This document shows, piece after piece, positions 6,058 through 34,862 of a DNA stretch of 64,000 nucleotides. Position numbers and translations under genes: made by a program. Within the stretch, counting starts at the first letter, position 1, and every line of letters starts with the position of its first letter. The notes below the pieces were generated by a model that ran no database searches, was not told where the DNA came from, and was given only the letters and a program-made list of their open reading frames with translations. The stretch is from Candidatus Levybacteria bacterium CG2_30_37_29 (GTDB lineage Bacteria; Patescibacteriota; Microgenomatia; Levybacterales; GWA1-39-11): assembly GCA_001873215.1 (NCBI GenBank), contig MNYS01000008.1, positions 2,657 to 66,656 of the forward strand. The letters are read 5' to 3'.

Positions 6058-6114
6058 TGTGCCAATTTCAGCTTGCCTGAACTTGGCACTGAAATTACGT
6101 TGTAATTTCAGTGG
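6058..6114. repeat. tRNA 3'-flank repeat/hairpin, short version
   Basis: gtgccaatttcagcttgcctgaac followed by ggcactgaaatt-acgttgt-aatttcagtgg. The 3' arm of the hairpin overlaps the last nucleotides of tRNA-Ala. Related to the elements at 30233-30324 and 30584-30626. Confidence 0.5.
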
Positions 6115-6299: not shown

Positions 6300-7529
6300 A
6301 TGCTTATGGAAATTCCCCTTGCAGAGAGAATGCGACCTGTAACATTATCACAATTTGTCGGGCAAGATCACCTTGCAGGAATTGGCGGGCCAATAAGAAG
6401 CATGATTGAAAATAGGAAAGTCACTTCAATGATTTTATGGGGTCCTCCGGGAGTCGGCAAAACAACTCTTGCTCATATAATCGCTTCGTCAATTGACGCA
6501 AATTTTGTTTTTTTCTCAGCCGTAACAAGCGGAGTAGAGGATGTACGAAAAGTAATTAAACAAGCAAGGATAGACATTGAAAACAACAAGAAGCAAACAG
6601 TGCTTTTTGTCGACGAAATTCATAGATTTAATAAATCTCAACAAGACGGTTTTTTACCTTACGTTGAAGACGGAACAATAATTTTAATTGGTGCAACAAC
6701 TGAAAATCCGGGATTTCGCGTCAACGCGCCTCTTATTTCAAGAAGCCAAGTTTATAAATTGTCAGAACTTGCAGACGTGGATATAAAGAAAGTAGTCGTG
6801 CGAGCAATTAAATTTTATAAAAAAAATAAATGGGACAAAAATGCTCTGGATCATATCATAAAACAAGCAAACGGAGACGCCAGAAATGCGATAAATGCCA
6901 TAGAACTCGCCGCATCAATTTCAAAAAGCGTAACTCTTGAAATTGCTGAAGTCGCCGTTCAGCAAAAAGCAATTTATTATGACAAAAAAGGGGATTTTCA
7001 TTACGATACGATTTCCGCATTCATTAAATCGATGCGGGGAGGCAATCCTGACGCAACTCTTCACTATTTGGCGCGTATGATAAAGTCAGGCGAAGACCCG
7101 CTTTTTATCGCACGAAGAATGGTTATCTTTGCGAGTGAAGATATAGGCAACGCTCAACCTACAGCACTTGTTGTTGCGACGAGCTGCATGCAAGCCGTAC
7201 ATATGATAGGAATGCCTGAATCCCAGCTTATTTTAGCGCAAACAGCAACCTATCTTGCAACTGCAAAAAAATCTATTGCTTCAACAAGCGGAATTTTTGA
7301 AGCTCTATCTGACATAGATGAAACAAGACTTGAGCCTATTCCTTTGCATCTTCGAAACGCAGCAAACAAAGTTATGAAACAATTTGACTACGGAAAAGGA
7401 CATGTACGCTATCCGTGGCTTGTTGAGAAAGAAACCAAACAAAGAGTAGAACAGGCCATGCCTGCCGGCAGGCAGGAATATATGCCAAAAAATCTAAAGG
7501 GGAAAGTTTACTACAAGCGAGATTGGTAA
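6300..7529 (+). CDS. rarA: replication-associated recombination protein A (AAA+ ATPase)
   Basis: Walker A GPPGVGKTT, Walker B LFVDEIHRFNK, and the MgsA C-terminal region. Carries an 18-nt palindrome insertion near the 3' end (see findings). Confidence 0.85.
   Translation: MLMEIPLAERMRPVTLSQFVGQDHLAGIGGPIRSMIENRKVTSMILWGPPGVGKTTLAHIIASSIDANFVFFSAVTSGVEDVRKVIKQARIDIENNKKQTVLFVDEIHRFNKSQQDGFLPYVEDGTIILIGATTENPGFRVNAPLISRSQVYKLSELADVDIKKVVVRAIKFYKKNKWDKNALDHIIKQANGDARNAINAIELAASISKSVTLEIAEVAVQQKAIYYDKKGDFHYDTISAFIKSMRGGNPDATLHYLARMIKSGEDPLFIARRMVIFASEDIGNAQPTALVVATSCMQAVHMIGMPESQLILAQTATYLATAKKSIASTSGIFEALSDIDETRLEPIPLHLRNAANKVMKQFDYGKGHVRYPWLVEKETKQRVEQAMPAGRQEYMPKNLKGKVYYKRDW
7478..7495. repeat. 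GC-rich palindrome TGCCTGCCGGCAGGCAGG (copy 1 of 5), inside rarA
   Basis: Perfect palindrome encoding MPAGRQ in frame. Identical core to the copies at 29680, 31804, 32226 and 33744. Confidence 0.8.
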
Positions 7530-26575: not shown

Positions 26576-27694
26576 CTAACTGTCAGCTCCTACTGCATCG
26601 GCGATATTTTTGAAGCCGTCTATTGCAAGAAGCTTTACCAGGCCTGAATTTATTTCATGAATTAACTGCGGACCTTCAAAAATCATACCGGTAATTAATT
26701 GGACTAAGGATGCGCCTTTTTTTATTTTTACATAGGCGTCTTGGGCGCTAAAAACCCCGCCGCACCCAATAATTGCGAATCTCTTTTTATAATTCTTGTG
26801 TGCAAATTTTATCAGCTCATTTGAGCGTTCAAAAGTAGGCTTTCCGCTAAAATTTCCAATTCTAAACTTTATTACCTCACTTTTTATTAAAGACGGATGA
26901 GAACGGTCTTTTTGTAAATTACCAAAAATGACTCCTTTGGAAGAATGCTTTGCAATCACATCAAGCATAATTTTTATCACCCGAGTGCTGTTTGATATTG
27001 GCATTTTGACAAAAAACGGCTTTTTAAGCCTTAGCTTGTCAATTTCAGACAGTAAATCTTCCAAAGTCTTTTTTTGTGTAAAAAGTAACATTTCCAAAAA
27101 GATTTGGGCAACTGATGTTGAGTTCATAATAACTATTTTTTACGCGAGCTTTTTCAAAAATCTTAAGAGCGCAAATTATGTCTTCAACGCTTTGTTTTTG
27201 ATTTAATTTTGCACTATTTGTTCTACCAATGCTTATTCCTATAGGAATTTCAAAATTTAATTATCCTAATGTTTGTGCAGTTTCTTCTGCCCCGAAATTT
27301 CTAAATCCCTTATTACCATCAGCGATTTTGATTTTGGTAGTCTGCCCAATTGCGGTCTCGGATTTCCTTCATAAGCCATGTTGGTAATTGTTCCAACTGT
27401 TTGAAAACCAAATCCTACACTTAGTGTGATTTGGGTAAGACGCGTTTCATAATCAAACCCTGCGGCAAGACCAATAGGATTGGGGAAATTTATCCCGGAC
27501 AATTCTTGATGCAAAACCGAGTTAGTTATTTTAAATTGCGATGAAATAATTTTTCTTAATCTTTTATTCTGTCCTAATTTCTCCCCAAAAGCAGTTGCTC
27601 CAATGTGAACTTTTTGGGGATCGGTTCTAAAGAAAACAGGATTTAGAATTCCACTATAAGTTTTTTTTGTAATTGTCGGTATTAATCTTCGCAC
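26576..27694 (-). pseudogene. pyrD: dihydroorotate dehydrogenase (pyrD) disrupted by frameshift
   Basis: The N-terminal piece (27266-27694) has FPNPIGLAAGFD. The C-terminal piece (26576-27127) has IIGCGGV…GASLVQ. The two are colinear but in different frames, with a 138-nt gap. Confidence 0.6.
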
Positions 27695-28921: not shown

Positions 28922-29593
28922 ATGCTAACCAATGTCCGCGAACGTTTTTTGCAAATTCGCATAAGACGAGACGAAAAAGAAATTAAAATTGGATTTTTCA
29001 TAACAGGCATAATAATAATTATTCTTTTGGCCAACGTTGTCTATCTCAATTTTTTTCTTTTAAAAAATAAAGGTGTTGCAAATACGAATATTTCACCTAG
29101 AAAAAGTTCTGTTGATACTATTATTCCATCTCCAACACAAATTCAAGCTCAAAATCAAACTTTAAGTCCTACGCCTATTCCTCCAACCATTGCCATACAA
29201 AATACTTATCGAACAACGACATCAAATACAATAAAAGATTATTTTATTCCCCTAGGCTCGGGGACAAATCAATCAAGCGACTGGGTGGATGTCCCGGGAG
29301 CACAAGTCGCTATTGATTTAGGTCAATATCAAAATGTTAAAGAAGTTCATTTTGAGGCGTCTGTCACTATGCCCACCTCAAACGGATCTGTTTATGTACG
29401 GCTTTTTAACGTTACGGATAAACATCCTGTATGGAATTCCGACGTTAGCGGAGTAGGGAATTCAATATATACTCTTACTTCGCCGGCTATTATTTATGAT
29501 AAGAGCGCAAAAGTGTATCAAGTACAAATGAAAACGCAAATGCAGGTTGCGGCAAATCTTACTCAATCAAGAATCCATGTCACCCTTGAGTAA
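28922..29593 (+). CDS. hypothetical membrane-anchored secreted protein
   Basis: TM anchor, Thr/Pro-rich linker, beta-rich C-terminal domain. Confidence 0.35.
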   Translation: MLTNVRERFLQIRIRRDEKEIKIGFFITGIIIIILLANVVYLNFFLLKNKGVANTNISPRKSSVDTIIPSPTQIQAQNQTLSPTPIPPTIAIQNTYRTTTSNTIKDYFIPLGSGTNQSSDWVDVPGAQVAIDLGQYQNVKEVHFEASVTMPTSNGSVYVRLFNVTDKHPVWNSDVSGVGNSIYTLTSPAIIYDKSAKVYQVQMKTQMQVAANLTQSRIHVTLE

Positions 29594-29623
29594 CAATAAA
29601 CATTTTGAGCGGGAGACGGGAAT

Positions 29624-29655
29624 CGCTCAATTTCTACGAAATTGCGCGCTTTTTT
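29624..29655 (+). terminator. Rho-independent terminator
   Basis: CGCTCAATTTC-tac-GAAATTGCGCG stem followed by CTTTTTT, 30 nt after the stop at 29593. Confidence 0.55.
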
Positions 29656-29679
29656 CCAACAAAAAGAGCGAACCCGCTA

Positions 29680-29697
29680 CCTGCCTGCCGGCAGGCA
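29680..29697. repeat. GC-rich palindrome CCTGCCTGCCGGCAGGCA (copy 2 of 5)
   Basis: Located 27 nt downstream of the tRNA-Gly 3' end, minus-strand sense, before an AGCGGGUUCGCU hairpin with a U-run. Confidence 0.8.
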
Positions 29698-29724
29698 TCT
29701 TCCTTGACCTGCCCGCTAATACTG

Positions 29725-29796
<72 letters not shown>

Positions 29797-29941
29797 ATAA
29801 GCTCTGCAGGCGGGCAAGGAAGCATTCTTAGGCGCACAGTGAAACGAGCACCGCAAGCTCTTGCTTACCGGTGAATTACTCCCGCTGAAAAAACTTGTTT
29901 TTTCAGCACCAGGTTCTCGCAGTGCTCGAAACTGGCGCAGT

Positions 29942-30196
29942 CTATGTTTTTAAACTCATTACTAATTTTAATTTTCTTTCTCTTGGCCAACTTTTAATTT
30001 CCATTTCGCGTTTCAATGCCTGTGACTTTGTTTTATATTCTTCTGAATGAACTAATTCAACAGGCAACTTACCTTTTATTGATTTTGCGCCCTGCTTTCC
30101 AAAATTATGTTGCCACAATCTGTTTTTTATATTTAATGTATATCCTGTATAAAAAGAGCCGTCACTACATTCGACAATATAAACATAATGCTTCAT
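29942..30196 (-). CDS. small GIY-YIG nuclease-family protein (YhbQ/UPF0213-like)
   Basis: The YVYIVECSDGSFYTGYT…RLWQHN…GAK catalytic motif set fills essentially the whole 84 aa. Confidence 0.75.
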   Translation of the reverse strand: MKHYVYIVECSDGSFYTGYTLNIKNRLWQHNFGKQGAKSIKGKLPVELVHSEEYKTKSQALKREMEIKSWPRERKLKLVMSLKT

Positions 30197-30232
30197 TGTT
30201 CTATCTTAGTTATAAGCTCTGCGAAAATCTAG

Positions 30233-30324
30233 CGTGCCAATTTCAACCTGCCTGAACATAGACTGTGCCACATACGAACAACGTGAGTACGTGGCACTGA
30301 AATTTTAGTAAAAATTTCAGTGCC
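30233..30324. repeat. tRNA 3'-flank repeat with two hairpins
   Basis: The 43-nt core at 30241-30283 is identical to 30584-30626. It is followed by the GGCACTGAAATTTT-agta-AAAATTTCAGTGCC hairpin, whose 3' arm overlaps the tRNA-Phe 3' end. Related to 6058-6114. Confidence 0.6.
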
Positions 30325-30393
30325 GAGACCAAGAATTGCACTCGGATAGCCTGTTCTTCAGACAGGTGCCTTGACTACCTCGGCCATCTCGGC
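30321..30393 (-). tRNA. tRNA-Phe(GAA)-like
   Basis: GCCGAGA/UCUCGGC acceptor and anticodon loop CUGAAGA. The D-stem is 3 bp with a Ser/Leu-like D-loop (GAGGUAGUCAA), and the T-loop UGCAAUU is non-canonical. Discriminator A. Confidence 0.55.
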
Positions 30394-30403
30394 AAAAAAA
30401 TAC

Positions 30404-30454
30404 TATATTCGATTGCGAATTCAATGCAATCTCAGACAGTGATTGCATTATATC
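30404..30454. repeat. 51-nt IS-target/IS-end-like repeat (intact copy)
   Basis: TATATTCGATTGCGAATTCAATGCAATCTCAGACAGTGATTGCATTATATC. The first 31 nt are 29/31 identical to 47105-47135, and the tail matches 48255-48271. Confidence 0.55.
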
Positions 30455-30461
30455 AAATGTG

Positions 30462-30534
30462 TGGGCGGTGCAAGACTTGAACTCGCGACATCTTCGGTGT
30501 AAACGAAGCGCTCTACCAGCTGAGCTAACCGCCC
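30462..30534 (-). tRNA. tRNA-Val(TAC)
   Basis: GGGCGGU acceptor, anticodon loop UUUACAC, GCGAGUUCAAGUCUUGC T-arm. Confidence 0.85.
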
Positions 30535-30583
30535 TTTAAACTTTCCTTAGCACAAACCAACATTTGAACAAACCATGTGTTAG

Positions 30584-30626
30584 TTTCAACCTGCCTGAAC
30601 ATAGACTGTGCCACATACGAACAACG
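30584..30626. repeat. tRNA 3'-flank repeat core (second copy)
   Basis: 43/43 nt identical to 30241-30283, ending 10 nt before the tRNA-Leu(GAG) 3' end. Confidence 0.6.
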
Positions 30627-30635
30627 GGAGAAATG

Positions 30636-30722
30636 TGCCGAGGACAGGACTTGAACCTGCACGTCTTATTTAAGGACACAAGAACCTCAATCTTGCGTGT
30701 ATACCAATTTCACCACCTCGGC
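30636..30722 (-). tRNA. tRNA-Leu(GAG), long variable arm
   Basis: GCCGAGG acceptor, anticodon loop UUGAGGU, 17-nt variable arm, GCAGGUUCAAGUCCUGU T-arm. Confidence 0.8.
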
Positions 30723-30776
30723 AAGCTTCGGCGCAAACACCCAACTTGTACAGTTAGTATTTTACCAAACATAGTC

Positions 30777-31757
30777 ATGTTAAAACAAGAACACATTGCT
30801 ATAATGTTTTTAATGGATGTTATTTTTATATTTTTTACAATTCTTGGTCTATCTCTTTTTGAAATAATTACAAGCATTGACAATGCAATTATTAATGCTG
30901 AAGTGCTCGGAGGAATGAGCAATAGAGCAAAAAAATGGTTTTTGACATGGGGAATAGTATCATCTATTTTCATTGTCAGAGGAGTCTTACCCTTTCTTAT
31001 TCTTTATGCAACCGTTCCACAACTTGGTGTTGTAAATACCATAACCGCAGCTTTTTCATCAGATCCCAATATTGCTGAAACCATAAAAGAATCATCTCAT
31101 GTTCTGCTTATTGCAGGGGGGGTCTTTTTAATTTTTCTTTTTTTTCACTGGCTTTTCTTAGAACCTAAAAATTTTGGCCTTAGGGGCGAAAGGTTTTTCC
31201 ATTCAAAAGGTGTTTGGTTTTATGCAATCGTATCAATACTTTTAACAGTAATTGTGTGGTTTGCATTCAAACAAAACAATCCATTGCTTCAGTTTGGCGC
31301 CGTTGTAGGATCTACAATGTTTTTTATAATTCATGGATTCAAAGGATATGCAGAAGAGCAGGAAAAAAAACTTTTATCGGTTGGCGTATCTGATTTTGCA
31401 AAAATTGCATACCTTGAAATACTGGACGCAAGCTTTTCAATTGATGGAGTAATCGGGGCTTTTGCATTTACCTTTGCAATTCCTCTTATACTTATAGGGA
31501 ATGGCTTAGGAGCAATCGTATTGAGGCAAATAACAATTAGCAATATAGAACGGATAAAAAAATATAAATACCTAAAAAACGGAGCAATGTATTCGATTTT
31601 AATACTTGGTATTGTAATGCTTTTGCATAGCTTTAGAATTGAGATTCCTGAATGGTTATCACCCGTTGCAACATTTGCAATTGTTGGTTACTTTTTTTAC
31701 AAGTCAAATATTGACCTTAAAACAATTACTGACTTATCTGAACCAAATAAAAAGTAG
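30777..31757 (+). CDS. TerC/DUF475-family integral membrane protein
   Basis: SIDNAIINAEV motif and ~8 TM segments. The track ORF starts earlier (TTG at 30564), inside the tRNA genes. Trimmed here to the first ATG past them. Confidence 0.55.
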   Translation: MLKQEHIAIMFLMDVIFIFFTILGLSLFEIITSIDNAIINAEVLGGMSNRAKKWFLTWGIVSSIFIVRGVLPFLILYATVPQLGVVNTITAAFSSDPNIAETIKESSHVLLIAGGVFLIFLFFHWLFLEPKNFGLRGERFFHSKGVWFYAIVSILLTVIVWFAFKQNNPLLQFGAVVGSTMFFIIHGFKGYAEEQEKKLLSVGVSDFAKIAYLEILDASFSIDGVIGAFAFTFAIPLILIGNGLGAIVLRQITISNIERIKKYKYLKNGAMYSILILGIVMLLHSFRIEIPEWLSPVATFAIVGYFFYKSNIDLKTITDLSEPNKK

Positions 31758-31782
31758 AGAAGTCCCACTTCATTTTTCAAAG

Positions 31783-31874
31783 TGCCCGAGAGAGGACTCG
31801 AACCCTGCCTGCCGGCAGGCAGGCTCCACACCATTGCTGGTACAGCGTTCTGAACGCTGCTTGTCTACCTGCCA
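31783..31874 (-). pseudogene. tRNA-Leu(CAG) 3' three-quarter fragment with a 20-nt palindrome in the T-stem
   Basis: D-arm, CAGCG-UUCAGAA-CGCUG anticodon arm, long variable arm and CUCGGGC-A acceptor 3' strand are all present. Removing CCTGCCTGCCGGCAGGCAGG (31804-31823) restores a GGAGG/CCUCU T-stem. There is no matching 5' acceptor strand locally. Confidence 0.6.
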
Positions 31875-31881
31875 AAGCATG

Positions 31882-31962
31882 TGCCAGGAGGGGGACTCGA
31901 ACCCCCACATCTTGCGATACACGGTTCTGAACCGTGCTTGTCTACCATTTCAACATCCTGGC
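31882..31962 (-). tRNA. tRNA-Leu(CAG), intact
   Basis: GCCAGGA/UCCUGGC acceptor, anticodon loop UUCAGAA, 13-nt variable arm, GGGGGUUCGAGUCCCCC T-arm. Begins 4 nt after the GIY-YIG stop. Confidence 0.8.
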
Positions 31963-31966
31963 TTAT

Positions 31967-32212
31967 TTATGTTGCGCTATTTATCTCTTGTATTATCTCA
32001 CGACCAAACCCTGATTTAAAGAACTTCTCGAGTTTAATTGCGTCCCCTAGCGACACACAGATTTCTACATGAATAAGCTTAAATGGTGCTAAATGTTTTA
32101 TGGAAGCTGTTTTATTATTGTTGTGTTCGGAAAGTCTTCTTAAGATATTATTCGTATAACCTTTATAAAAAACGTCCTTTTTTTGACTTTTAATAACATA
32201 TACGTAATACAT
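31967..32212 (-). CDS. small GIY-YIG nuclease-family protein (second copy)
   Basis: The YVYVIKSQKKDVFYKGYT…RRLSEHN motif set fills essentially the whole 81 aa. The start ATG directly abuts the tRNA 5' fragment. Confidence 0.75.
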   Translation of the reverse strand: MYYVYVIKSQKKDVFYKGYTNNILRRLSEHNNNKTASIKHLAPFKLIHVEICVSLGDAIKLEKFFKSGFGREIIQEINSAT

Positions 32213-32213
32213 A

Positions 32214-32261
32214 TGCGTGTCTACCCCTGCCTGCCGGCAGGCAGGATTCCAACACTCGGGC
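32214..32261 (-). repeat. tRNA 5' fragment (acceptor plus D-arm) with palindrome in the D-loop
   Basis: GCCCGAG-UG-UUG-GAAUCC[UGCCUGCCGGCAGGCAGG]GGUAGA-CAC-GCAU. The acceptor strand is the exact complement of the 3' strand of the fragment at 31783. Near-identical to the plus-strand unit at 33727-33773. Confidence 0.6.
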
Positions 32262-32291
32262 TCATACGTATTGTACCAATACTAATTTTTC

Positions 32292-32324
32292 TTGACAAGA
32301 AATAGCAATTTATGTAATTATAAT
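32292..32324 (+). promoter_or_regulatory. putative promoter
   Basis: TTGACA at 32292 with TAATTA/TATAAT about 17-21 nt downstream. The ATG at 32332 is very close, suggesting a short leader or leaderless transcript. Confidence 0.3.
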
Positions 32325-32331
32325 GTATTAA

Positions 32332-32925
32332 ATGAAAAAGCTTGTTCTGCTCGCAAGTTACTCGATTTTTATGCCGATTTTTTTACTCGCCTTAATTATA
32401 TATTCCATGTCGCTTACCAAAGTGGCTGTCGCAAATTTTAACGACGCAAACACAGAGGTTTTGGGTACAGAAACAGCATCATCTCATCTCATTTCCAATA
32501 ATACAAATAGGGATATTATTGCTGCATCCGGTGAAAAAGGGCGTACTACAATTTTGAAAGAATTTTTGAACAAATATAATTCGCCTCTTTTACCATACGC
32601 GGTGCACATTGTTTCTGCGGCAGACTTTTACGGAATTGACTACCGTCTTCTTCCGGCAATTGCACTTCAAGAAAGCACGCTTTGCAAAAAAATTCCAAAA
32701 GAATCTTATAATTGTTGGGGATTTGGAATTTATGGAGGAAATGTTACACGATTTACAAGTTATGAGGATGCAATAGAAACAATTTCAAAAACTTTGGCAA
32801 AAGAATACAAAGCAAAAGGCCTTGAACATCCGACAGAAATAATGACAAAATACACGCCGCAAAGCAATGGAAGCTGGGCGAAAAATGTAAGCTACATAAT
32901 GGACAGAATAAGCCCCTCGCTTTAG
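32332..32925 (+). CDS. membrane-anchored secreted protein, possible peptidoglycan-hydrolase (lytic transglycosylase/lysozyme-like) domain
   Basis: TM anchor. Central LLPAIALQESTL…CWGFGIYGG region paralogous to the gene at 33137-33685. Confidence 0.35.
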   Translation: MKKLVLLASYSIFMPIFLLALIIYSMSLTKVAVANFNDANTEVLGTETASSHLISNNTNRDIIAASGEKGRTTILKEFLNKYNSPLLPYAVHIVSAADFYGIDYRLLPAIALQESTLCKKIPKESYNCWGFGIYGGNVTRFTSYEDAIETISKTLAKEYKAKGLEHPTEIMTKYTPQSNGSWAKNVSYIMDRISPSL

Positions 32926-33136
32926 GTATTTCTTAAACTTCAATCTACTTTAAGGTGATTTTGAACATTTTTGTGCATAAAACTACATATTATGGCCTGT
33001 AGTAAAGTACTTGACAAACCTATAGTTCTATGATAAGATACTGATTAGATCCTAAGGTAGCCCAAAACTACTTTAGGATTTTTTAATGGTTTGAGTAATC
33101 CTCAAGTTTCTATTTGTCATAGGCACTTGAATAATT

Positions 33137-33685
33137 ATGAAAACTACAAAAACTTTTTTAATCCTTGTAGCACTTCTTATTGCTACACTTACATTTTCCA
33201 AAAATGCATACGCGGAAGGTACTGCTGTACCCTCAGCAAAGCTTTTGTCATTTGACAGCTCAAAAATCATTGAAAAGGACGTACGCAGTATTGCAATTGA
33301 AAATATTTTCAAAAAATACAATTCTCCACTTCTAGGCCTTGGCGCAACTTATGTAAAATACGCTGATAAATACGGCGTGGACTGGAAGCTTTTACCTTCA
33401 ATATCAGGGCTTGAATCAAGCTTTGGACAATTTCTTATGCCCGGCTCTTATAATGGTTACGGATGGGGCGGAGGCTACATATATTTTGAAAGTTGGGAAG
33501 ACGGAATTGACATAATTAACAAAACTTTGCGCGGCAACTACATGGATAAATGGGGCGCAACCGACGTTTGGAGTATTGGTCCTATTTATGCAGAGTCAAA
33601 AACATGGTCTGTGAGGGTAAACGGCTTTATGAATGAAATCGAAGCAGAATACAAATCTCTTCTCGCAGTCACCCCCACAATCTAA
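33137..33685 (+). CDS. paralogue of 32332-32925
   Basis: Shares NSPLL…YGVDWKLLPSISGLESSFGQ…GYGWGG with the upstream gene. Confidence 0.35.
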   Translation: MKTTKTFLILVALLIATLTFSKNAYAEGTAVPSAKLLSFDSSKIIEKDVRSIAIENIFKKYNSPLLGLGATYVKYADKYGVDWKLLPSISGLESSFGQFLMPGSYNGYGWGGGYIYFESWEDGIDIINKTLRGNYMDKWGATDVWSIGPIYAESKTWSVRVNGFMNEIEAEYKSLLAVTPTI

Positions 33686-33726
33686 CTCTTTTTCCAAAGC
33701 TGGTTAAACTGTATAATACCTTTATT

Positions 33727-33773
33727 GCCCGGGTGGTGAAATTCTGCCTGCCGGCAGGCAGGAGTATACACGC
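33727..33773 (+). repeat. tRNA 5' fragment with palindrome in the D-loop (plus-strand copy)
   Basis: GCCCGGG-UG-GUG-AAAUUC[UGCCUGCCGGCAGGCAGG]AGUAUA-CAC-GCAU, followed by CGCAA-GACC-UUGCG and a U-run. No 3' half is present. Confidence 0.6.
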
Positions 33774-33825
33774 ATGGTTTAAGAACTTGCTCTCAAGTTC
33801 GCAAGACCTTGCGACCTTAATTTTT

Positions 33826-33906
33826 GCGGATGTGGTGAAATGGTATACACGATAGGTTTAGGACCTATTGCCGTAAGGCGTGGAGGTTCAAGTCCTCTCA
33901 TCCGCA
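33826..33906 (+). tRNA. tRNA-Leu(TAG), long variable arm
   Basis: GCGGAUG acceptor, anticodon loop UUUAGGA, variable arm UGCCGUAAGGCGU, GGAGGUUCAAGUCCUCU T-arm. Confidence 0.85.
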
Positions 33907-33953
33907 CAAATACAGCTTTACTTATAGGCTCATTTCCAGTATAATATCTCTCT

Positions 33954-34862
33954 ATGGCAAACGTGAAGAAAGAAAATACGGACCAAACAGCAGTTAAAAC
34001 CTATTCTACTGCAAAACCTCGAGTAATCGTAAATCGGCTTTCTGATTCATCTGTTGAAATAAAAATTGTTGTCCCGTGGGGAGACGTAGAAAAGGTTCGA
34101 AAAGAAGTAGTAGATAAGCTTGCGCAAACTGTAACCGTGCCTGGATTTAGACCCGGAAAGGCGCCAAAAAATGTTGCCTCTGCAAAAATTCCAAAAGAAA
34201 AAGTACAGGAAGAAATGCTCAAAATTATTTTAACCAATGAGTATACAAAAGCCGTAAAGGACAATGATATAAAGCCGATTATAAATCCTAAAATTCACAT
34301 AGAAGCTTTTGAGGAGGGAACCCCGCTTGAATTCGAGGCAATGACTTGTGAAGAACCAATAGTTGAATTAGGAAATTACAAAGACGCTATCAAAAAAATC
34401 ACTGCTCCTTCTAAAATTGTTTTACCCGGCAAAGACCCTTCGGCTAGCTCAGGGCAGGAGAAGATTCCGCTTGATGATGTATTAAAAGCTGCGCTTTCGG
34501 CAACAACAACAAATATTCCACACGTGTTAGTAGAACAAGAAACAAACCGACTTTTATCACAACTTCTTGACGAAATTAAAAGGCTTGGAGTAAGTCTTGA
34601 CCAATATCTTGCATCACGCAGTAAAAATTCGGATCAGCTAAGAACAGAATATGAAGAAAAGGCAAAATCTGATATAAAGCTTGAATTTATGCTAAGAAAA
34701 ATTGCCGATACCGAAAAAATTGTTGTTGAACAAAAAGATATTGAAACCGCTCTTGCAACGATTGAAGACCAGAACCAAAGAAAAGAAATAGCACAAAATC
34801 CGTATATGCTTGCAGGAATTATCCGTCAGCAAAAAACTCTTGATTTTCTTTCAAAGCTTTGA
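33954..34862 (+). CDS. tig: trigger factor (shortened form)
   Basis: N-terminal ribosome-binding motif GFRPGKAP plus a PPIase-like middle region. 302 aa, versus about 430 aa canonically. Confidence 0.6.
   Translation: MANVKKENTDQTAVKTYSTAKPRVIVNRLSDSSVEIKIVVPWGDVEKVRKEVVDKLAQTVTVPGFRPGKAPKNVASAKIPKEKVQEEMLKIILTNEYTKAVKDNDIKPIINPKIHIEAFEEGTPLEFEAMTCEEPIVELGNYKDAIKKITAPSKIVLPGKDPSASSGQEKIPLDDVLKAALSATTTNIPHVLVEQETNRLLSQLLDEIKRLGVSLDQYLASRSKNSDQLRTEYEEKAKSDIKLEFMLRKIADTEKIVVEQKDIETALATIEDQNQRKEIAQNPYMLAGIIRQQKTLDFLSKL

Follow-up and report, generated by a model that had tools for sequence, protein, structure and literature searches.

We analysed a 64,000-nt stretch of contig MNYS01000008.1 (positions 2,657 to 66,656, forward strand) from Candidatus Levybacteria bacterium CG2_30_37_29, hereafter the window, which has a G+C content of 35.8% and carries a tRNA gene cluster at 29.7–33.9 kb. 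To judge from homologues of a DUF475 membrane protein encoded next to the units, the organism belongs with the Microgenomates-type Patescibacteria. Within the cluster, a repeat search of the window identifies two inverted 49-nt units, unit 1 (32213–32261, minus strand) and unit 2 (33727–33775, plus strand), that are 88% complementary. Read 5′ to 3′ on their own strands, unit 1 is GCCCGAG-TG-TTG-GAAT-CCTGCCTGCCGGCAGGCAGG-GGTAGA-CAC-GCAT and unit 2 is GCCCGGG-TG-GTG-AAATT-CTGCCTGCCGGCAGGCAGG-AGTATA-CAC-GCAT, where CCTGCCTGCCGGCAGGCAGG and CTGCCTGCCGGCAGGCAGG are palindromes. When aligned with the four tRNA-Leu genes of the window, both units correspond to the acceptor 5′ strand and D-arm of tRNA-Leu, with an 18–20-nt insert in the D-loop ahead of G18G19. 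Neither is called as a tRNA by ARAGORN or by the Rfam model RF00005, at the gathering threshold or at E ≤ 10. To judge from these alignments the units are cut-off 5′ ends of tRNA-Leu genes, that is, dead tRNA pieces.

An initial annotation of this DNA had described two near-identical units resembling a tRNA acceptor plus D-arm and carrying a palindrome, with a common CACGCAT end, one followed by a gene start and the other by a terminator-like hairpin. This observation is real: the likeness and the shared end are as described, an ATG (32212, minus strand) directly follows unit 1, and a hairpin at 33799–33814 plus a T run follows unit 2. The similarity is also not confined to the palindrome, the remaining likeness being generic tRNA-Leu sequence. 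Other parts of that annotation are confirmed only in part, as is its interpretation.

Unit 1 opens an interrupted tRNA gene (Table 1). Along the minus strand from 32261, the unit is directly followed by an 81-residue GIY-YIG open reading frame (ORF), four bases, an intact tRNA-Leu(CAG), the heptamer ATGCTTT and a 3′ tRNA part that we call F3, unit 1 being the 5′ part, F5. F3 starts with a half-palindrome remnant, GGCAGG (31868–31873), and continues with GGTAGACAAG-CAGCG-TTCAGAA-CGCTG, a variable arm and a T-arm to its end, CTCGGGCAC; in full it reads GGCAGG-TAGACAAG-CAGCG-TTCAGAA-CGCTG-TACCAGCAATGGTGT-GGAG-CCTGCCTGCCGGCAGGCAGG-GTTCGAGTCCTCT-CTCGGGC-AC. Its acceptor strand CTCGGGC pairs at 7/7 positions with the GCCCGAG of unit 1. 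Joining the first 16 nt of unit 1 to F3 from GGTAGA onwards, with the palindrome in the T-stem removed, yields a perfect 84-nt tRNA-Leu(CAG) in ARAGORN; with either palindrome kept, neither ARAGORN nor Rfam detects a tRNA. The claim that the units lack a 3′ half is thus overturned for unit 1 and stands for unit 2, for which no partner (CCCGGGC) exists anywhere in the window.

The 376 nt between the joined pieces hold the GIY-YIG ORF and a complete tRNA-Leu(CAG) that is divergent, with an acceptor (GCCAGGA) and an anticodon stem (CACGG/CCGTG) unlike the corresponding parts of the interrupted gene. The break falls at D-loop position 17/18, not in the anticodon loop, and an Rfam search of 29400–34100 finds no intron or other RNA family at E ≤ 10 beyond six intact tRNAs. 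We regard the gene as interrupted and not intron-containing because the insert holds an ORF and a tRNA, because the T-stem hairpin would also need to be removed, and because no intron family matches. An intron-containing tRNA of the bacterial group I type was rejected (D-loop insert, no ribozyme match, ORF and whole tRNA within), as was a split tRNA of the Nanoarchaeum type (intact tRNA-Leu(CAG) between the pieces, break not at 37/38). Recovery of a full-length tRNA on allowing a long intron, the outcome that the initial annotation had set against its own view, does formally occur for unit 1, but within this 'intron' lie a protein gene and a whole second tRNA-Leu(CAG). A promoter-like site ends 8 nt upstream of unit 1 and, from its sequence, could drive a single transcript over stub, ORF and tRNA.

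Table 1 Features of the two units and related elements in the window
Feature	Position	Strand	Evidence or remark
Palindrome copy in RarA/MgsA-like coding sequence (6300–7529, +)	7459–7476		In frame as AMPAGRQ
Palindrome copy (18/20 nt), 27 nt after tRNA-Gly(GCC)	29680–29697		TAGCGGG on both sides
Second GIY-YIG ORF, 84 aa, 'KSWPR' subfamily, between tRNA-Phe and tRNA-Gly	29942–30196	−	PF01541, E=2.7e-17
F3, 3′ part of putative resident tRNA-Leu(CAG)	31782–31873	−	Reconstruction as perfect cloverleaf
Second 20-nt palindrome copy, in F3 T-stem 5′ strand	31804–31823		
Intact tRNA-Leu(CAG) (T′)	31881–31962	−	ARAGORN; Rfam, 53.8 bits; alignment
GIY-YIG nuclease ORF, 81 aa, catalytic domain alone (UPF0213-like)	31967–32212	−	Pfam PF01541, E=1.9e-15
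Unit 1 (F5), 5′ stub of putative resident tRNA-Leu(CAG)	32213–32261	−	Alignment, repeat search, reconstruction
Unit 1, rest of D-arm (GGTAGACACGCAT)	32213–32225	−	Its CAC unpaired with TTG of unit 1
Unit 1, 20-nt palindrome	32226–32245	−	
Unit 1, acceptor 5′ strand, U8G9, D-stem 5′ strand and D-loop start (GCCCGAGTGTTGGAAT)	32246–32261	−	
Promoter-like site TTGTCA-17 nt-TACAAT, TG before −10, 10/12 match	32270–32298	−	Consensus match only
Extended −10-like motif TGTATAAT, 9 nt upstream of unit 2	33710–33717	+	Sequence reading; alignment
Unit 2, 5′ stub of tRNA-Leu, no ORF	33727–33790	+	Alignment, repeat search
Terminator-like hairpin (33799–33814) and tail (CCTTAATTTTT), between unit 2 and intact tRNA	33799–33825	+	
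Intact tRNA-Leu(UAG), downstream of unit 2	33826–33907	+	ARAGORN, Rfam

Unit 2 is, by its sequence, the same type of stub as unit 1, an ORF-less copy in front of tRNA-Leu(UAG). Its acceptor strand GCCCGGG is followed by a D-arm with the palindrome (33744–33762) and by CACGCATGGTTTAAGAAC, the 5′ strand of the anticodon stem plus the loop (CATGG-TTTAAGA), beyond which the sequence is degenerate. An alignment with the locus of a relative, L023, puts unit 2 at the exact start of the ancestral tRNA-Leu(UAG), beside a conserved promoter motif: TGTATAAT has its homologue ahead of the uninterrupted tRNA-Leu(UAG) there, and unit 2 without its palindrome is identical to the 5′ part of that gene at 33/40 positions. 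The 88% identity of the two units could plausibly have arisen by gene conversion between the inverted copies.

The L023 locus encodes a DUF475 protein 81% identical to that of the window and has the order DUF475, DUF1761, intact tRNA-Leu(CAG), two genes for 193-residue proteins and tRNA-Leu(UAG); it has no GIY-YIG gene, stub or palindrome. The site is thus filled in the window and empty in L023, the presence–absence pattern at a conserved site that characterizes free-standing homing endonucleases. The two 193-residue proteins are orthologous to the 197- and 182-residue proteins encoded between the units (46% and 58% identity). By this comparison the segment between the units is conserved and is not the variable part. 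The initial annotation had placed the units at the edges of a variable segment; the DNA that varies is 31782–32261 and 33727–33825, outside the segment that they enclose.

The relatives also bear on which tRNA-Leu(CAG) is ancestral. The rebuilt gene matches the uninterrupted genes of L021 and L023 at 74/83 (89%) and 70/83 (84%) positions and shares with them the anticodon arm CAGCG/CGCTG and the acceptor GCCCGxG; its A6:T67 pair is a compensatory change relative to their G:C. For the intact copy at 31881–31962 the corresponding values are 64/83 (77%) and 69/83 (83%). Because the interrupted gene shares its anticodon arm and acceptor with the relatives and the intact copy differs in both, the comparison moderately supports the view that the interrupted gene is the resident and the intact copy a replacement that arrived with the ORF. 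Within the species, 20 loci representing 11 distinct public contigs (JGI, ENA and NCBI) are at least 99.8% identical over 29500–34000, all copies included, and so contain no informative variation.

The interrupted tRNA-Leu(CAG) is inverted compared with its orientation in L023 and L021 (window 32262–32331 versus L023:1739–1830), and the sequence that follows the tRNA 3′ end in L023 is the one abutting the tRNA 5′ end in the window. Divergent promoter-like sites near 32262–32331 have −35 hexamers that share one palindromic TTGACAAG core.

The solved structures nearest to the 81-residue protein are the UPF0213 entries PDB 1YWL (E=2.4e-5) and 1ZG2 (E=1.7e-3), and there is a faint match to SLX1. 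Residues Y5, Y16, G18, R26, H30 and E62 are invariant in a five-sequence alignment, which assigns the protein to the GIY-YIG superfamily and its UPF0213/YhbQ-like minimal branch. The second GIY-YIG ORF of the window is enclosed by imperfect 48-nt inverted repeats (29901–29948 and 30255–30302). No NCBIfam or PADLOC name was returned for either protein. The left arm of the 29901–30302 repeats has a solo copy after tRNA-Leu(GAG) (30577–30630, 54 nt, 93% identical) and a partial copy after tRNA-Ala (6059–6096); the arm contains the half-palindrome CAGGCAGG and, after it, a degenerate tRNA-Leu D-arm.

The arrangement recurs widely. A metagenome search with the alignment of five proteins gave an unbiased set of 80 loci, in which relatives are 36–58% identical to the window protein. 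At 35 of the 73 loci with enough downstream sequence, a tRNA gene on the same strand begins a median of 11 nt past the point where the domain stops, with tRNAs for Leu, Arg, His, Asn, Lys, Gly, Met, Gln and Glu all represented. Many of the ORFs lack a stop codon of their own and terminate in the U8-A9-G10 of the tRNA or in a D-loop TAG. A 5′ copy of the same tRNA lies upstream of the ORF at about 30 of the 34 loci tested (z of 7 to 49 against shuffles). Almost every stub that could be delimited (27/28) contains a GC-rich hairpin insert of 19–95 nt, which with a single exception lies within or next to the D-arm. Of these hairpins the exact 20-mer represents the shortest form and also the most frequent, and the longer forms keep its ends, CCYGCC...GGCRGG.

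Individual loci reproduce the two window layouts, both in this set and, for L039, L054, L062, L108 and L133, among genome stretches that carry the palindrome (below). The anticodon is the same and the sequence different between stub and intact tRNA at the divergent-stub Leu loci L146, L153, L154 and L180, as in the CAG pair of the window. The unit 1 layout (F5, ORF or tRNA, F3) is seen also in L153, L214 and L039; the 3′ remnant kept in L153 and L214 again bears a hairpin, and in L039 an intact tRNA-Met separates a stub from a 3′ remnant with an acceptor that pairs to the stub. In L062, a complete WWE3 genome, the 5′ part of a tRNA-Lys with a D-loop palindrome precedes, by 19 nt, a GIY-YIG ORF and then an intact tRNA-Lys, and L133 has the same layout with tRNA-Gly and the palindrome at the anticodon stem–loop junction. 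L054 and L108 are ORF-less like unit 2: between stub and intact tRNA there is a short spacer or no more than the first seven codons.

Some loci are more elaborate. L192 (1727–1960) contains a tRNA-Arg(CCG) copy with at least four hairpin inserts (two in the D-loop, one each in the anticodon loop and T-stem), the tRNA segments of which are identical to a clean copy upstream of the ORF. In L165 (1–470), two full-length tRNA-Arg(CCT) copies flank the ORF, both with a D-loop hairpin, and the 1.8 kb of available sequence contains no clean copy. In L208 (1–758), an ORF of this family with a 23-nt inverted repeat around it interrupts a 16S rRNA gene, which the Rfam SSU model matches across the insert with 283.8 bits; a group II intron D1–D4 fragment lies just downstream (979–1064).

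The palindrome itself is not limited to stubs. Within the window, CTGCCTGCCGGCAGGCAG with up to 3 mismatches has six matches at five sites (two overlap, 29677–29698), compared with 0.00 expected from 100 dinucleotide shuffles of the window. The copy in the RarA/MgsA-like coding sequence encodes AMPAGRQ just before the conserved EYMPKNLKGKVYY tail and leaves the ORF open; it is apparently an in-frame 21-nt addition. The copy after tRNA-Gly is followed by a small hairpin and a T run (29660–29720), and could be either a remnant stub or a colonized terminator.

A scan for the 18-mer core, with one genome per species, returned at least 120 genome stretches, and stretches with the exact 20-mer CCTGCCTGCCGGCAGGCAGG number at least 120 and span about ten phyla; 119 of the 123 copies among the matches listed have the full 20-mer. 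The hosts include Patescibacteria (many classes), Bacteroidota, Omnitrophota, Planctomycetota, Bdellovibrionales, Proteobacteria, Thermodesulfovibrionales and others, with the cultured isolates Winogradskyella echinorum KCTC 22026, Flagellimonas yonaguniensis, Longitalea luteola, Agriterribacter humi and Aquiflexum lacus among them. The 20-mer is also present in 35 IMG/VR stretches, many of 60–68% G+C and mostly with neither ORF nor tRNA, a pattern that does not single out a vector. Copies are nested in L042 and L067, and others stand in short tandem-repeat contexts. Solo palindromes show a mild preference for A at −1 and −3. Targeting of hairpin apices was dropped as a main claim, since ungapped flank pairs are not enriched (2.59 versus 2.57 of 10 in the control) and the fold signal of the flanks is weak (−4.9 versus −3.8 kcal, p=0.02).

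In a viral-contig tRNA-Met(CAT) (L249:2239–2330), the palindrome occupies the variable region and the gene is still called by ARAGORN and by Rfam (50.2 bits), so that this palindrome may be a tolerated extra arm. At 4 of 155 loci, including L075, a four-helix bundle protein lies within 1.5 kb of the palindrome; judging by eye and not by a family search, we take it to be of the '23S rRNA intervening sequence protein' type, the small gene for which lives in hairpin-bounded inserts.

Hairpin arms also occur next to the ORFs. With the strict motifs CCYGCCYRCC and GGYRGGCRGG, an arm lies up to 130 nt upstream or 260 nt downstream of the ORF at 40 of the 80 loci, compared with a background of 0.026 per kb elsewhere in the same loci, an enrichment of more than 100-fold. 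The arms form a closed upstream hairpin in 17 loci and are split around the ORF in about ten; these roughly ten loci lack a tRNA, and in them the ORF sits between CCCGCCCGCCTCGCCTGAGCGAG and GGCTCGCGATGGCGGGCAGG, and thus inside the hairpin. Because the arms flank the ORF in other members, the 20-mer looks like two terminal arms abutted, and the arms provide the terminal inverted repeats that a miniature inverted-repeat transposable element (MITE) shares with its ORF-carrying element. In other members the ORF is bordered by inverted repeats of an unrelated kind. Testing for inverted repeats in general gave z ≥ 5 at only 9 of 73 loci because the arms are imperfect, and the motif test is the more informative. 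The 13 ORFs with the exact 20-mer upstream encode proteins that are 37–66% identical to each other, which implies either a strong constraint on the 20-mer or its repeated re-introduction.

Elsewhere in the window, the dihydroorotate dehydrogenase gene (26576–27694, minus strand) is called as separate ORFs of 142 and 183 aa in every public contig, with an in-frame TAA near 27262; a 14-nt palindrome, ATTCCTATAGGAAT, at 27235–27248 is unrelated to the GC-rich palindrome.

We think it likely that the units are 5′ tRNA-Leu ends split from their working copy by a selfish cassette of nuclease and tRNA that has a MITE-like hairpin derivative. This reading builds on the anatomy of the locus, the recurrence of the architecture across tRNA identities and phyla, its absence from relatives and the shared arms, all of which the compared sequences display. 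From these comparisons we infer mobility, and likewise the target of the nuclease. The initial annotation favoured remnants of a tRNA-like mobile module over two independent pseudogenes, and in outline this survives, in that one type of module recurs in many genomes, although its idea that the units are boundaries does not.

In its full form the putative cassette comprises a 5′ tRNA stub (F5) with a GC-rich hairpin in the D-loop, a GIY-YIG ORF of about 80 residues and, with its position +1 directly at the ORF end, a complete tRNA that has the same anticodon; F3 sometimes comes after it. The palindrome would be the minimal hairpin, the 10-nt arms CCYGCCYRCC and GGYRGGCRGG abutted, and elsewhere these arms would act as the equivalent of terminal inverted repeats. 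Transcription would come from the promoter of the tRNA itself, as suggested by the motifs before units 1 and 2 and by the lack of room for a promoter between ORF and tRNA. The nuclease would stimulate recombination among tRNA genes of like sequence, pasting the ORF and a tRNA copy into a resident gene of the same anticodon, with the stub, and the remnant where present, supplying the homology. The host would retain a working tRNA, and the insertion would therefore be tolerated. A minimal, structure-specific nuclease may use the hairpin as its cis site. Hairpins without an ORF may be mobilized in trans and persist only where they are harmless, which would cause them to pile up in dead tRNA pieces.

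It is possible, if rather doubtful, that minimal GIY-YIG proteins and hairpin arms constitute an undescribed class of mobile element in prokaryotes. Here an SLX1/UPF0213-like structure-specific nuclease would replace the transposase or integrase, invade loops of RNA genes (tRNA D-, anticodon- and T-loops, 16S rRNA helices), and disable the resident tRNA while bringing its replacement, a 'cleave and rescue' drive. Such an element would also shed a 20-bp ORF-less derivative, kept identical by the specificity of the enzyme across Patescibacteria, Bacteroidota, Omnitrophota, Planctomycetota, Proteobacteria and phages. The literature searched, which did not cover subscription journals and so leaves room for a prior description, contains no account of a GIY-YIG gene combined with a tRNA stub and hairpin, and the 20-mer string is in none of its papers.

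Several observations weigh against the cassette reading. Mobility is deduced from comparisons of loci. The assignment of resident and incoming tRNA depends on modest differences (89% and 84% versus 77% and 83% identity), and the GCCCGGG acceptor of unit 2 is unlike that of the adjacent tRNA and its orthologue and resembles that of unit 1. In most loci the intact tRNA beside the ORF has the D-arm of the stub, so that a nuclease that cuts the D-arm of an empty allele would cut the element's own host copy as well. At 119 palindrome copies, target-site duplications of 2–6 nt, as would be expected of a MITE, do not exceed a permuted control, and the preference for hairpin apices is weak. Covariation in the stem is mixed (position 7 is Watson–Crick in 22/30, position 3 is a C:A mismatch in 13/30), and for want of a clean signal we claim no conserved RNA structure. 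All-against-all clustering of 1085 nearby ORFs found no protein family recurring near palindromes in more than 4 of 155 loci.

In a rival reading the palindrome is an independent selfish hairpin, similar to repetitive extragenic palindromes (REPs) or MITEs and functionally unlinked to the GIY-YIG gene. The stubs would then be products of partial duplications or cassette insertions, colonized because they are highly transcribed, structured and free of selection, and the likeness of the units would reflect coincidental colonization and tRNA-Leu homology, perhaps with gene conversion. Most palindromes are indeed solo: a GIY-YIG ORF adjoins 3 of about 125 genomic copies among the matches listed and 1 of about 45 in IMG/VR. 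Many copies are in viral contigs that are rich in GC and lack both a tRNA and the ORF, and 35 of 121 among the matches listed are inside long ORFs, as at 7459–7476. Hairpins also occupy differing positions in stubs and remnants (L214, in which F5 and F3 disagree, L200, L175 and L194), a pattern that independent colonization fits equally well. Some stubs and remnants have two hairpins, single stubs can carry them in different loops, and the tRNA copy in L192 has at least four. Several hairpins per stub at varied positions imply that hairpins insert repeatedly, and their presence in all stubs may partly reflect a build-up in dead DNA and not a role as an integral component of the cassette. Set against this are the more than 100-fold enrichment of the arm motif next to the ORFs, the roughly ten loci in which arms enclose the ORF without a closed hairpin, the near-universal presence of hairpins in delimited stubs, and the exact conservation of the 20-mer beside ORFs that have diverged to 37–66% identity. 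We consider this explanation unlikely as a whole.

The remaining explanations fare worse. It is very improbable that unit 1 and its 3′ piece make a functional tRNA, with a very long intervening sequence or as a split tRNA joined or held together at the RNA level by palindromes that serve as processing or pairing signals. Once the two inserts are removed all stems of the cloverleaf are perfect, the acceptor has a compensatory A:T pair, the two palindromes could pair with each other, and the phage tRNA-Met with a palindrome in its variable region still scores 50 bits. Against such a tRNA stand the contents of the intervening 376 nt, the absence of any group I, group II or other intron model at E ≤ 10, the position of the break, the further 20 nt that would have to be excised from the T-stem, and the failure of ARAGORN and Rfam to find a tRNA when either palindrome is kept. 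Moreover, every other examined locus with sufficient flank has a clean copy beside the hairpin copy (L165, L110 and L125 have insufficient flank), and we know of no bacterial tRNA splicing of this kind. The proposal in the initial annotation that the units are attachment-site duplications, in the manner of attL and attR left by a site-specific recombinase, around a 32.2–33.8 kb island with two secreted-protein genes, is hardly credible. Transfer RNA genes are classic integration sites and two near-identical tRNA-derived repeats do flank two paralogous genes, but the repeats are inverted and not direct, 5′ tRNA parts are involved instead of the 3′ parts found in integrase att duplications, and there is no integrase, nor any Pfam domain in the two enclosed proteins. 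The proposal is contradicted by L023, where both enclosed genes are kept in the same order between intact tRNA-Leu(CAG) and tRNA-Leu(UAG) without any units. An assembly or library artefact is just as implausible. An exact 20-mer common to unrelated metagenome-assembled genomes is what technical sequence would produce; however, the 20 conspecific loci from three public sources agree to at least 99.8%, all copies included, the 20-mer is in genomes of cultured isolates, diverged relatives have the same ends at the same structural position, and the palindrome is kept in frame within a coding sequence.

The probable cassette resembles several known systems without matching any of them. Free-standing GIY-YIG Seg genes of phage T4, especially SegB of the tRNA gene cluster, likewise lie among tRNA genes and probably spread without an intron, by recombination that the nuclease stimulates and that takes adjacent tRNA sequence along. 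In Seg proteins and I-TevI a DNA-binding domain is joined to the catalytic domain, whereas the window protein is an 81-residue catalytic domain alone and the hosts are cellular genomes of many phyla. To our knowledge, Seg genes have neither a stub-with-hairpin architecture nor terminal hairpin arms. One study (PMC13096335) describes how SegB drives the rearrangement of tRNA loci. REPtrons (REPs with a RAYT gene of the Y1 HUH type) are similar in that a small nuclease-type gene is flanked by inverted short GC-rich palindromes of which many ORF-less copies are dispersed. They differ in that the enzyme here has a GIY-YIG fold, not HUH/Y1, the 20-mer is identical across phyla whereas REPs are species-specific, and the targets here include tRNA-derived loops and coding regions. 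We rejected REP/RAYT membership because the associated ORF is GIY-YIG and solo copies have no other recurrent protein family in their vicinity.

Integrative elements that target tRNA genes also insert with a partial duplicate that leaves an intact gene. In those elements, however, the 3′ part is duplicated, the direct repeats are tens of kilobases apart and the enzyme is a tyrosine or serine integrase, whereas the present insert, of about 300 bp, goes with a duplicated 5′ part and without an integrase. Rickettsia palindromic elements and yeast mitochondrial GC clusters are GC-rich selfish palindromes in AT-rich genomes, found in RNA genes and, like the copy at 7459–7476, in frame in protein genes; they measure 30–150 nt, are lineage-specific and have no nuclease gene in the same architecture. 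Intervening sequences of rRNA are hairpin-enclosed inserts, sometimes with a small ORF, in loops of a structured RNA, as in the 16S rRNA gene of L208. Those are removed harmlessly by RNase III, but a cut in the D-loop would be expected to leave a tRNA non-functional, and the interrupted copies described here always come with an intact one.

These results explain tRNA-like fragments that recur in genomes of Patescibacteria, Bacteroidota and others, and that can mislead tRNA annotation, gene calling (through spurious ...PAGRQ... or ...ACRQAG... ORFs) and synteny analysis. They tie the very common, uncharacterized minimal GIY-YIG proteins of the UPF0213-like type to a genomic behaviour and a candidate DNA substrate, which makes their function testable. 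Identity over 20 bp across phyla, beside proteins that are 37–66% identical, implies a strong and portable protein–DNA or structural constraint. If the nuclease recognizes the 20-mer, the two would form a compact, programmable-looking nuclease and site system, and if replacement and rescue occur as proposed, they would amount to a natural gene-drive-like strategy acting on essential bacterial tRNA genes. As dead tRNA pieces the two units are ordinary; they are unusual in exposing a widespread cassette, in which a GIY-YIG gene is combined with a tRNA and a hairpin, and a 20-bp palindrome that is conserved across phyla.

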